Below are positions 25,202 to 36,017 of a DNA stretch of 55,623 nucleotides, one piece after another (the first letter of the stretch is position 1; each line of letters starts with the position of its first letter). This stretch comes from Clostridia bacterium (GTDB lineage Bacteria > Bacillota > Clostridia > Oscillospirales > CAG-272): the NCBI GenBank assembly GCA_017452895.1, contig JAFTLE010000007.1, forward strand, positions 1 to 55,623, read 5' to 3'. The translations under genes and the position numbers were made by a program. Below the pieces are notes generated by a model. The model was not told the origin of the DNA, made no database searches, and saw only the letters and a program-made list of their open reading frames with translations.

Positions 25202-26173
25202 ATGATAGAAATTGAAAACCTTGTGAAACGCTACGGCAACGTGTATGCGCTGGACGACGTTTCGCTGAGTATAGGAGAAGGAGAGATCGTCGGTCTCCTC
25301 GGCCCCAACGGCGCAGGGAAGAGCACGACGATGAATATTCTGACGGGCTATTTGTCCGCAACCTCCGGATCGGTATGCGTAAACGGCATTCATATCCTTG
25401 AGAATCCGAAGGCGGTTAAGCGGCAGATCGGCTATCTGCCCGAGCAGCCGCCGCTTTACCCCGAAATGACGGTAAAGGAATACCTGAATTTTGTATACGA
25501 ACTGAAGGGCTGTACGCTGGATAGGGAAGCACACCTTGCGGAGATCTGCAAGGTCGTGCGGCTTGAGGATGTTTCTCACCGACTCATCTCGCATCTTTCG
25601 AAGGGCTACCGTCAGCGCGTCGGCATTGCGCAGGCACTTATCGGCGATCCGCCCGTGCTGATCTTCGACGAGCCGACCGTCGGTCTTGACCCAAAGCAGA
25701 TCATAGAGGTGCGAAATCTGCTCCGTACCCTCGGAAAGAGGCATACCGTCATTCTCAGCACCCATATTTTACCAGAGGTACAGGCGGTTTGCGAGCGGAT
25801 CATCATCATTGACCGCGGAAGGATTATCGCAAACGCGAAAACCGAGGACCTGGCGCGCCGTCTTGAGGACGCGCAGAGCTTCCGTGTGAAGATCTGCGGC
25901 CCGCAGAAGGAGGTTGCCGCCGCCTTGCGTGAGCAAAGCGGCGTTGCGAAGGTCGAAGCACTCCCCGAGCGCGACGGCGAAAGCTACGTATTTATCGTTG
26001 AATCGATGAGCAAGGTCGATATCCGCCGCAGCATTTTCACGCTATGCGCGGGTAAGAATTGGCCGATGCTCGCGCTGGAGCCGATCGGCACCGACCTTGA
26101 GCAGATCTTTTTGCGTCTGGTCGAGGGTGAAAAGGCAGAGAAGGAAAGCAAGAAAAGGAAGGGCAAAAGATGA
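25202..26173 (+). CDS. ABC ATPase, GldA-like
   Basis: GPNGAGKSTTM, GYLPEQPPLYPEMTV, LSKGYRQRVG, DEPTVGLDPKQ. Confidence 0.9.
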   Translation: MIEIENLVKRYGNVYALDDVSLSIGEGEIVGLLGPNGAGKSTTMNILTGYLSATSGSVCVNGIHILENPKAVKRQIGYLPEQPPLYPEMTVKEYLNFVYELKGCTLDREAHLAEICKVVRLEDVSHRLISHLSKGYRQRVGIAQALIGDPPVLIFDEPTVGLDPKQIIEVRNLLRTLGKRHTVILSTHILPEVQAVCERIIIIDRGRIIANAKTEDLARRLEDAQSFRVKICGPQKEVAAALREQSGVAKVEALPERDGESYVFIVESMSKVDIRRSIFTLCAGKNWPMLALEPIGTDLEQIFLRLVEGEKAEKESKKRKGKR

Positions 26174-26874
26174 TAGCAATTTATAAAAGAGAGATGCGCG
26201 CCTATTTCACGACGCCCATCGGATACATATTCCTCGCGTTTTTCCTCGCTACCGCGGCACTCGTATTCAGCCTGACCACACTCTACGCAATGACCACCGA
26301 TGTCACGGGCTATTTTCAGGTGCTTCTTTACGGAATGATCGTGCTTCTACCGCTTCTGACGATGAAGCTCTTTTCCGAGGAGCGAAAGCAGAAGACCGAG
26401 CAGCTCCTGTTGACCGCCCCTGTCTCGCTTTTCAGCATGGTGTTCGCGAAATTCCTCGCCGCCTTCACCGTCTATGCGGGTGCGCTCACCGTTACACTTC
26501 TGTTTTTTCCAATTTTGGAAATTTATGGAAGCGTCAAGCTCGGTATGCTCTTTGGCAACTACCTCGCGCTTCTGCTTGCGGGCATGGCGTTTATCGCGAT
26601 CGGCGTGTTTATTTCCGCGCTGACCGAAAATCAGCTGACCGCGGCGGTTGGCACGATCGGCATCCTCATCCTTCAGCTCGGTATTTCGCTGCTCAATTCG
26701 CTCCTTGGTGAGTATTGGGCACGCTTTATCGTTGCCTCACTGTCGGTATTTTCGCGTTTTTCCGCGTTCACGCAGGGCATTTTCGATTATTCCGCCGCCA
26801 TCTACTATCTGTCCTTTACGGCGATTTTCCTCTTTTTGACGGTTGCCGTCTTCCACCGCCGCCGTTACGAATAA
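26170..26874 (+). CDS. ABC-2 permease, GldF-like
   Basis: KREMRAYFTTPIGY, PLLTMKLFSEERK.KTEQLLLTAP, SALTENQ; about six TM helices. Confidence 0.85.
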   Translation: MIAIYKREMRAYFTTPIGYIFLAFFLATAALVFSLTTLYAMTTDVTGYFQVLLYGMIVLLPLLTMKLFSEERKQKTEQLLLTAPVSLFSMVFAKFLAAFTVYAGALTVTLLFFPILEIYGSVKLGMLFGNYLALLLAGMAFIAIGVFISALTENQLTAAVGTIGILILQLGISLLNSLLGEYWARFIVASLSVFSRFSAFTQGIFDYSAAIYYLSFTAIFLFLTVAVFHRRRYE

Positions 26875-26886
26875 GGAGTGCCCCCA

Positions 26887-33833: not shown

Positions 33834-33846
33834 GAGCAAAAGGCGT

Positions 33847-34302
33847 ATGAAGAAAATTGAGATCTACACCGACGGCGCATGCCGCGGTAACCCCGGCCCC
33901 GGCGGCTGGGGCGCAATTCTGGTGTACGGCAAATTCGAGCGTGAGCTTTCGGGCGGGGAAGAACAGACCACCAACAACCGCATGGAGCTGACGGCGGCGA
34001 TCGCAGGGCTCTCCGCCCTGAAGGAGCCGTGTGAGGTCACGCTGTACTCGGATTCCAAATATTTAGTAGATGCGATCAATCTCGGCTGGGCGGCGGCGTG
34101 GCGCGCGCGGGGATGGCGCCGAAGTGCGAAGGAGGAGGCAAAGAATCCCGATCTTTGGGAGACGCTCTTCTCGCTTCTAGAAACCCACACCGTGACCTTT
34201 GAATGGGTGCGCGGGCACAATGGGCACGATTACAATGAACGGTGTGACCGTCTGGCAACTGCCGCGGCGGATTCCTACCGCATACAAGGAGATCAGATAT
34301 GA
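33847..34302 (+). CDS. rnhA: Ribonuclease HI
   Basis: [46 protein letters not shown]. Confidence 0.97.
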
Positions 34303-36017
34303 AAAAAACGATTGCCCTGCTTTTGGCGGCGCTTATGCTTTTCTCGTCGCTTTTTGCATTCGCAGGCTGCGGCGATGATGAAAACACCCCCGCCGCCTCC
34401 ACAACGCCGAGCTACCAGTACATAGAAAAGGCGTTCGACTACCTCGGCACCGATCTTTCCCCCTATATCACGATCACCGCAGATCAGTACAAGGGGCTCG
34501 TCCTCGCGCTGATTGGCTATAAGACCGAGATCACCGAGGAGGAGATCGCCGAGTATTACGAGGACCACCTCCGTTATCTCTACAAGGATGCCGTAAACGA
34601 GGAAAAGAAGGAATACCTGAAGCCCGTCGGCAACACCGACGAGCTGGTGATCAGCTACTACACGAAGGCATACGACAACACGACCGAGGTCAAGATCCTC
34701 TCCTCCAACGGCTACGCTCTCGTGCTCGGCGCGAAGGGCTTCTGGGACGAGACGATCGAGGAATCGCTCGTCGGACTCATCCCCGCCACCTCGGTTGAGG
34801 GCGCGGATACCCTGTCGGTCAAGGACAATCTTGTGCTTGTCGATTACACCGTCAAATATCTCTACGATAAGGACGGCGACGGCACCGACGAGGAGCATAT
34901 TTATAAGGAAGGCACGGGTGAGGCTGTCGATCTTGGCATTGACACGGGCGATATTGCAACCTATTATCAGAAATTTCTCGGCAAAAAGCGCACCGACACC
35001 GTCAGCTTTGAGATCGCTGACAAGGAGATCGTCGTTGTTGAGAAGGCAGACGGCGTTGACGAGAAAAAGGCAAAGGTCACCTTGAACGTCGAGGCGACCG
35101 TTACCGACATTCTCACGCAGAACGTTCACCCGATCACCGTGACCCTGCCCGACGACTTCGTGCCCGAGGAGGACGAGGCATACGGCACCTACTACTACCT
35201 CAACGGTCACGAGATCACGGTCTATGTCACCATCGAGTCCTTCGTCGACTACGAGCTGGCAGAGGAGACCATCGACTTCATTCTCAATGAGGGTAAGTGC
35301 GAATTCGTTCCCGAGGGCTACACTGAAGCGGACTACGAAACCTATTACGCCAAGTACAAGGATATGGAAAACGGCTTTGCGGTGCTGAAGGCAGAGTTCC
35401 TTGAATCGATCGGGGAATACCTCTTCGAGGAAAACGAGCAGGCGACGATTGACCAAAACTACCAGACCATCTGGAACGCCGTCCTTGATAAGGTAACGGT
35501 TAAAAAGTACCCCGAGGAGGCGTTCAACTACCACTTCCAGAACTTCTTCGCATCCCTGCGTGAATATTACGACTACGTCGGCGCGGTGCACGAGGGGTAT
35601 ACCTTCGAGACCTTCACCGTCGAGATGATAAACACACAGTATGGCACCAAGCTCAAGACCTTCGCCGAGGTTCAGGACTACGTCAAGAAGATGTGCGAGG
35701 GCTGGGTGAAGGAGGAGCTTGTCCGCTACGCGATCCATAAGGCGGAGAAGATCGAGCTCTCCGATGAGGAATTCGAGGAGGGCTATCAGGAGATGCTCAA
35801 GCAGGAGCTTGAGTATATCCAGATGAACTACTACTACGGCTACAGCCAGCTCTGGTTCAACACCATCGAGGAGCTGGAGGAATACTACGATAAGAACTAC
35901 GGCGAGGGCGAATTTGCAAAGAGCGCGCGCGACACGCTTCTTTATGAAAAGCTCATTCGGATCGTTTACGATTCCGCTGAAAAGACCGTAAAGGAAGAGG
36001 AAGACTCCAAGTCCTGA
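34299..36017 (+). CDS. Trigger-factor-like lipoprotein (paralog 2)
   Basis: Lipobox FAGC; EITEEEI; FKBP-like [19 protein letters not shown] and ITVTLPDDF...[15 protein letters not shown]-like [17 protein letters not shown] and [19 protein letters not shown]. Confidence 0.75.

Follow-up and report, generated by a model that had tools for sequence, protein, structure and literature searches.

Predicted trigger-factor-derived lipoproteins encoded beside a Gld-like ABC cluster in a genus of gut Clostridia

Why should two trigger-factor-like lipoproteins be encoded directly behind a Gld-type ATP-binding cassette (ABC) cluster in a Gram-positive genome, and do the two sets of genes work together? 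Trigger factor (TF) is normally cytoplasmic and ribosome bound, GldA, GldF, and GldG are associated with gliding in Flavobacterium, and extracytoplasmic folding in Gram-positive bacteria is thought to rest on few factors, chiefly the parvulin PrsA and cyclophilin- or FKBP-type lipoproteins. The locus in question occupies positions 25202-36017 of a 55,623-nucleotide stretch of DNA (contig JAFTLE010000007.1 of assembly GCA_017452895.1; the whole stretch is here called the window), which is contig C84 of a 1.4-Mb, 84% complete metagenome-assembled genome of a Clostridia bacterium, and it consists of eight genes, all on the + strand, in the order gldA-gldF-gldG-gldG-DUF4340-TF-like-rnhA-TF-like. 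A first-pass annotation of this DNA had proposed that the lipoproteins are repurposed trigger factors that work with the ABC complex to mature exported proteins. Profiles, homologs, predicted structures, and lipoboxes bear out the first part of that proposal: both lipoproteins are well supported as trigger factor derivatives that combine an FKBP-fold domain with the trigger factor C-terminal domain and are devoid of the ribosome-binding N domain. As to the second part, we favor, with moderate confidence, the reading that they are general PrsA-like extracytoplasmic chaperones that are co-localized or co-regulated with the ABC cluster.

The two lipoprotein genes are as follows.

32044..33798, + strand: TF-like lipoprotein 1, 584 aa, lipobox LASC, Cys22; Trigger_C at 21.4 bits; AlphaFold2 (AF2) model
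34299..36017, + strand: TF-like lipoprotein 2, 572 aa, lipobox FAGC, Cys24; Trigger_C at 21.9 bits; TIGR00115 tig at 5e-5; AF2 model

Both proteins begin with a candidate lipoprotein signal, in which a positively charged n-region is followed by a hydrophobic h-region and then by a lipobox of the form [LVI][ASTVI][GAS]C (one of the N-terminal stretches is MKRKLISLLALVLLLTAVLASC), and the LASC and FAGC lipoboxes of the first-pass annotation are indeed present; lipidation is predicted from a regular expression and a hydrophobicity window only. The same annotation took these ~580-aa proteins to be paralogs, which holds for their C-terminal ~280 residues (identity of 23%; E value of 1e-6) and not beyond that region. 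It is also the C-terminal region in which the relationship to trigger factor appears in sequence profiles: the Trigger_C scores of both proteins are just short of the Pfam gathering threshold of 22.7 bits, and in the genome search Trigger_C reached 25.2 bits, or 24.6 bits with neighboring matches included. The full-length trigger factor model TIGR00115 matches lipoprotein 2 at 22.3 bits, against a cut-off of 180.2, and does not match lipoprotein 1. Pfam detected none of Trigger_N, Rotamase, or SurA_N in either protein at an E value of ≤0.1, and the motif GF[RK]xGxxP, present as GFRKGKAP in the cytoplasmic trigger factor encoded by this genome (contig C53), is found in neither, as the first-pass annotation had observed.

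An exhaustive phmmer search with lipoprotein 2 over 1.84 billion representatives (E value of ≤0.001) returned 50 matches, which place it in a family of similar composition. Among the 51 sequences scanned (lipoprotein 2 and its 50 homologs), Trigger_C occurs in 43, FKBP_C in 36, and Trigger_N in 2, and a profile built from the homologs recovers true trigger factors at 1e-26 to 1e-49. The N terminus bears a lipobox in 33 of the homologs and is hydrophobic in 14, the remaining 3 being fragments of 166 to 276 aa with neither feature; GFRxGxxP is found in none of the 50. The nearest clusters in the ESM Atlas, labeled by domains only, are Bacillota proteins called "peptidylprolyl isomerase" with FKBP_C and Trigger_C.

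A phmmer search of PDB sequences yielded no useful match to either lipoprotein, and the relationship to trigger factor is visible instead by fold comparison. The AF2 models have mean predicted local distance difference test (pLDDT) scores of 72.9 for lipoprotein 1 and 84.9 for lipoprotein 2, with C-terminal domains above 90. In Foldseek searches, the six best matches to the model of lipoprotein 1 are all trigger factors, and trigger factors also come first for lipoprotein 2 (1w26_A at 6.5e-8). VIA-align superimposes lipoprotein 1 on chloroplast trigger factor (7zgi_A; Z score of 12.9 over 289 aligned residues) and on Escherichia coli trigger factor (1w26_A; Z score of 12.7 over 299 residues) and superimposes lipoprotein 2 on the latter (Z score of 12.6 over 308 residues, model positions 56-567 against trigger factor positions 113-422). 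In this last alignment, the match begins at about trigger factor residue 113 and, therefore, after the ribosome-binding N domain, in keeping with the lack of Trigger_N that had been predicted; for lipoprotein 1 the match starts at trigger factor residue 88 and chloroplast trigger factor residue 140. The C-terminal chaperone domain thus has near-threshold Pfam scores, confident models, and alignment to trigger factor C domains, and the C-terminal-like region noted in the first-pass annotation is confirmed by profile and by top structural matches.

The FKBP fold is recovered in both models. That of lipoprotein 2 aligns with FKBP13, FKBP12, and SlyD at Z scores of 9.5-10.7 (root mean square deviation of ~2 over ~89 aligned residues), and that of lipoprotein 1 aligns at Z scores of 7-8 in a low-confidence region. 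The ~89-residue FKBP core of lipoprotein 2 is spread across model residues 106-318, from which it follows that ~120 additional beta-rich residues interrupt it. Compared with trigger factor itself (Tig; TIGR00115; 1w26, 3gty, and 7zgi), the lipoproteins share the linker, an FKBP-fold domain, and the C-terminal domain (arm or "cradle") and differ in having a lipoprotein signal peptide (and, hence, a predicted extracytoplasmic location) in place of the ribosome-binding domain with its GFRxGxxP motif, as well as an enlarged FKBP domain.

In the mechanism that we propose, a lipoprotein signal peptide together with a short tether would have taken the place of the ribosome-binding N domain, and the linker, a sequence-degenerate FKBP-fold domain, and the cradle that carries the chaperone activity of trigger factor would have been retained. 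The lipid anchor would place the proteins on the outer face of the cytoplasmic membrane, where they would bind unfolded polypeptides leaving the Sec channel, block their aggregation, and act as a holdase or foldase like PrsA. Such a PrsA-like role at the membrane-wall interface is the most likely one because a structurally homologous module serves SurA, PpiD, and PrsA outside the cytoplasm. Whether the proteins are also prolyl isomerases is doubtful, given the degenerate sequence of the FKBP domain. One study describes the SurA chaperone module as structurally homologous to the trigger factor chaperone domain and mentions the proposal of PpiD as a "periplasmic trigger factor" (PMC2956729), and another credits PrsA with a trigger-factor-like activity against aggregation (PMC6858329).

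In predicted place and role, the lipoproteins resemble PrsA, SurA, and PpiD, which are likewise anchored extracytoplasmic chaperones with a TF-C/SurA-type module and a peptidyl-prolyl isomerase (PPIase)-fold domain, but the PPIase-fold domain is of the FKBP type and not a parvulin, and descent is from trigger factor and not from the PrsA/SurA lineage. Mip and FkpA likewise combine an FKBP fold with an additional chaperone domain in an exported or lipid-anchored protein, but they use an N-terminal dimerizing helical domain, whereas the partner domain in the lipoproteins is the trigger factor C domain. Exported PPIase-chaperone lipoproteins are, then, a known type, of which a trigger-factor-derived one would be a new variant: in the literature searched, which covered few subscription journals and included searches on "Trigger_C," we found no paper on exported trigger-factor-like lipoproteins. 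The locus adds a family of trigger factor derivatives, predicted to be lipid anchored and common in one family of gut Clostridia, to the folding factors of Gram-positive bacteria, and it suggests that the cradle can move outside the cell by a swap of the ribosome-binding domain for a lipoprotein signal.

Four observations weigh against regarding the lipoproteins as general PrsA-like chaperones. Pfam detects no FKBP_C (PF00254) in either protein at an E value of ≤0.1, so the FKBP-like segments of the first-pass annotation stand as a fold in both predicted structures and not as a profile match; residues 110-322 of lipoprotein 1, its FKBP region, are modeled at low confidence; a TF-like gene follows gldA-gldF-gldG-gldG-DUF4340 in all 22 loci of the genus; and 5 of 39 further genera of the family carry a PrsA-type lipoprotein gene immediately after DUF4340, on the same strand and at a distance of -22 to +84 nt. 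The first two would suit a protein in which the trigger factor scaffold has been reused at the surface, for peptide or ligand binding, for adhesion, or as a structural part of the wall, as would very fast divergence, a size range of about 500 to over 900 aa among the TF-like lipoproteins, and the poorly modeled middle of lipoprotein 1, with its Ser-rich linker. Yet no part is better conserved or more confidently modeled than the C-terminal chaperone domain, shorter members of the family retain canonical FKBP_C along with Trigger_C, and the chaperone activity of trigger factor is independent of PPIase activity, such that we consider a nonchaperone role improbable.

The other two observations concern the ABC cluster, which consists of the following genes.

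25202..26173, + strand: GldA-like ABC transporter ATPase, 323 aa; PF00005 at 2e-34; TIGR03522 GldA at 8e-93
26170..26874, + strand: GldF-like ABC-2 permease, 234 aa; ABC2_membrane_2 at 32.3 bits; TIGR03518 GldF at 1.1e-34
26878..28335, + strand: GldG-like auxiliary protein 1, 485 aa; PF09822 ABC_transp_aux at 38.0 bits (gathering threshold of 34.7)
28351..29961, + strand: GldG-like auxiliary protein 2, 536 aa; PF09822 at 34.2 bits, just below the gathering threshold of 34.7; DUF7088 at 0.0042
29975..31936, + strand: DUF4340 protein, 653 aa, with an N-terminal membrane anchor; PF14238 at 26.3 bits (gathering threshold of 25)

The first-pass annotation had listed a same-strand run of ABC ATPase, GldF-like permease, two GldG-like proteins, a DUF4340-like protein, and two lipoproteins, and each of these genes lies where it had been placed. 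The gldA-like stop and the gldF-like start overlap by 4 nt. The best NCBIfam matches of the ATPase and the permease are GldA (TIGR03522, 311 bits against an equivalog cut-off of 402.6) and GldF (TIGR03518, 120.5 bits against 288.5), and an NCBIfam scan of both GldG-like proteins returned no family at an E value of ≤0.1. Because all NCBIfam scores fall below the equivalog cut-offs, the Gld names denote likenesses only; judged by these profiles, the proteins belong to related ABC-2 systems and are not equivalogs. The GldG-like proteins are paralogs (mutual matches of ~1e-24), each with hydrophobic segments at both its N and C termini. The cluster thus resembles Flavobacterium GldA/GldF/GldG in its best NCBIfam matches and in the GldG-type ABC_transp_aux domain and differs in its host (a spore-forming member of the Clostridia), in having DUF4340 within the operon, and in the two GldG copies of the genus. 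The literature that we found on GldG and GldF deals almost exclusively with Bacteroidota, with a few papers on Thiothrix, a cyanobacterium, and metagenomes; a DUF4340 protein has been called essential in Verrucomicrobium spinosum (PMC12283558).

To what extent the lipoproteins keep company with this cluster was surveyed from the DUF4340 side and with the family profile because lipoprotein 2 is too divergent to serve as a single query. Among 24 other genomes of the genus, it finds a 92% identical ortholog in only one and weak matches (E values of 7e-11 to 4e-4, three of them covering a short part only) in five others; as a single query, it matches 8 of 41 genomes, one of which is that of the window. 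A word-indexed search with lipoprotein 1 found just two close orthologs.

DUF4340 was matched in 48 of 81 genomes of the genus, and the 22 genus loci comprise 20 that were fetched (L046-L065), the window, and one locus obtained earlier. Beyond the first TF-like gene, 20 of the 22 go on with rnhA and a second TF-like gene, and the remaining two end at contig ends. The flanks vary, no flanking gene family being common to more than 4 loci, and the DUF4340 proteins are mutually only ~25-35% identical, showing that the block has been preserved as a unit across considerable divergence. The genus is also peculiar in its ABC cluster: GldG is present as two paralogs, where other genera have one GldG, and the DUF4340 protein is enlarged, measuring about 560 to about 1020 aa compared to ~500 aa in other genera.

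The association ends at the boundary of the genus. Of 121 genomes of the family, 77 contain a DUF4340 homolog. Forty of these loci were examined, 39 belonging to other genera and 1 to the genus itself, and 33 of them extend 2.5 kb or more downstream. The other genera have a four-gene operon, gldA-gldF-gldG-DUF4340, with no ORF (open reading frame) matching the TF profile downstream of DUF4340 (0 of 39); one of their loci has a weak, 186-aa match to this profile upstream. At the level of the class, PF14238 matches 115 of the 200 Clostridia genomes sampled, and in 40 loci from ~40 other families, no ORF within ~6 kb matched the TF profile or the PrsA profile, the latter built from 5 sequences only and so liable to miss distant PrsA proteins. 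(ABC genes accompany a DUF4340-profile match in 34 of these 40; L068, L096, and L105 have ABC genes and no such match, L091 and L094 have the match and no ABC gene in the stretch, and L104, a region that was probably badly chosen, matches no profile at all.) Seen from the opposite side, none of 20 TF-like lipoprotein loci of other genera has DUF4340, GldG, or GldF nearby, nor do they have any conserved neighbor, no neighboring family being common to more than 3 of the 20. The ABC linkage of the TF-like genes is new and lineage specific, kept throughout the genus and not beyond, and the conserved linkage to gldAFG-DUF4340 that the first-pass annotation expected in related genomes therefore holds for 22 of 22 loci within the genus and fails in the other genera, in the other families, and in the reverse survey.

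The five PrsA-type genes that occupy the corresponding position in other genera are as follows, each on the same strand as DUF4340.

L013:10631-11605: PrsA-type lipoprotein gene after DUF4340
L022:7101-8099: PrsA-type lipoprotein gene after DUF4340
L034:10178-11158: PrsA-type lipoprotein gene after DUF4340
L037:10357-11391: PrsA-type lipoprotein gene after DUF4340
L045:2757-3743: PrsA-type lipoprotein gene after DUF4340

All five products contain Rotamase, and three contain SurA_N at an E value of ≤0.01. In a tree of GldA and GldF, four of the five genera form one clade and the fifth stands apart. Two kinds of foldase gene would, hence, have reached the position after DUF4340 independently about three times, as roughly estimated, against a chance expectation of well under one, and these arrivals, together with the unbroken conservation of the block within the genus, argue for an association with the ABC cluster beyond mere chance.

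It is therefore possible, if the less likely account in our view, that the TF-like lipoproteins are accessory chaperones dedicated to the GldA/F/G-DUF4340 machine, folding its large extracytoplasmic subunits or handing over or maturing its cargo at the membrane-wall interface. The persistence of the block in the face of divergent DUF4340 proteins and variable flanks, the recurrence of PrsA-type genes in one clade of four genera and one further lineage, and the duplication of GldG and enlargement of DUF4340 in the same genus all argue for such a partnership. However, no TF-like gene lies near the cluster in the other genera of the family or in the other families of the class, whose loci are also without a PrsA-like gene; since the core ABC system is widespread without such neighbors, it does not need a chaperone gene beside it to work. 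Conversely, the TF-like lipoprotein genes surveyed in other genera are unlinked to the cluster. This lack of a conserved neighbor in other genera, and the existence in the window's own genome of a third paralog away from the ABC cluster, favor the general PrsA-like chaperone instead.

Features within the block bear on the same choice.

31962..31989, + strand: putative promoter (TTGCTT, 16 nt, extended -10 TGtTATAAT), read from the sequence
33806..33832, + strand: intrinsic-terminator-like hairpin followed by a T run, from a terminator scan (near 33811-33824) and the sequence
33847..34302, + strand: RNase HI gene (rnhA) between the two lipoprotein genes; PF00075 at 6.5e-45

The gene list of the first-pass annotation omitted rnhA (33847-34302), which keeps its position between the TF-like genes in 20 of the 22 genus loci and whose stop overlaps the start of lipoprotein 2 (ATGA). 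RNase HI has no plausible role in the envelope, and its membership in so conserved a block means that conservation of the block is no proof of shared function. The boundaries of lipoprotein 1 also speak against a dedicated partnership: a possible promoter precedes the gene, and a terminator-like hairpin follows it. The 107 nt that separate the DUF4340 and lipoprotein 1 genes hold a plausible extended -10 promoter, as the first-pass annotation had suggested for position 31962; its elements can be read in the sequence, but a consensus promoter scan does not list it. The terminator suggested near 33804 is matched by the hairpin and T run, only ~15 nt 5' of the rnhA start, so expression of rnhA seems to require either read-through or a promoter within the preceding gene. 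In one metatranscriptome library, which may contain DNA, short contigs nearly identical to the locus fall only on lipoprotein 1 and rnhA, a weak hint of transcription; no contig lies on DUF4340 or on most of lipoprotein 2, and none crosses a gene junction. The lipoproteins are probably co-expressed through read-through of the operon combined with a promoter of their own. The converse idea, that rnhA and not the ABC cluster was the ancestral partner of the TF-like genes, was rejected, as none of the 20 TF-like loci of other genera has rnhA within ~6 kb.

A broader version of the partnership, which we think unlikely, would make GldA/GldF/GldG/DUF4340 an ATP-powered machine on the outer membrane face that acts on exported proteins and has repeatedly recruited lipoprotein chaperones, derived from trigger factor in one lineage and of the PrsA type in others. 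If true, Gram-positive bacteria would possess an energized extracytoplasmic folding or assembly system, and GldAFG would have gained its first functional handle. The recurrence of two kinds of foldase directly after DUF4340 is, in any case, a testable lead to the role of the widespread GldAFG-DUF4340 system.

Two further proteins encoded elsewhere in the same genome are of note.

L002:130-1827 (contig C34): third TF-like lipoprotein paralog, 565 aa, lipobox FAC; Trigger_C at 25.1 bits and weak FKBP_C
L005:1204-2382 (contig C40): 392-aa membrane-anchored protein; faint Trigger_C, 17.2 bits; no parvulin match

The neighbors of the third paralog, which lies away from any ABC cluster, look from their translations like a purine nucleoside phosphorylase (deoD) and the C-terminal part of a threonyl-tRNA synthetase (thrS). 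The 392-aa protein may be a degenerate PrsA/SurA-like protein, and the ORF directly 5' of it looks, likewise from its translation, like the C-terminal part of the transcription-repair coupling factor Mfd. A whole-genome Pfam search at an E value of ≤1e-6 missed the DUF4340 copy of the window itself.

Animal gut metagenome runs contain DNA nearly identical to the window. A family scan finds a DpaA N-terminal domain and a flavoprotein domain in two genes 3' of the locus, which are read as dpaA and dpaB and on account of which we regard the host as a spore-forming member of the Clostridia. Directly convergent with lipoprotein 2 is the following gene.

36187-37920, - strand: Sel1-repeat protein, 577 aa, with six Sel1 repeats

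Of the 22 genus loci, only 3, the window counted, have a homolog of this gene after the block. Three window ORFs encoding 158-208 aa have no Pfam match, those at 17972-18595 and 21381-21857 at an E value of ≤1e-4 and that at 21894-22520 at ≤0.001. The replication-origin region lies at 8000-18000 of the window, with dnaA (9292-10689), dnaN, recF, gyrB, and gyrA at 9.3-18 kb and a low-GC stretch (0.46) at 8-12 kb, where the cumulative GC skew turns; parB and parA are at 22.6-24.4 kb, and the locus is ~15-25 kb away from the origin.

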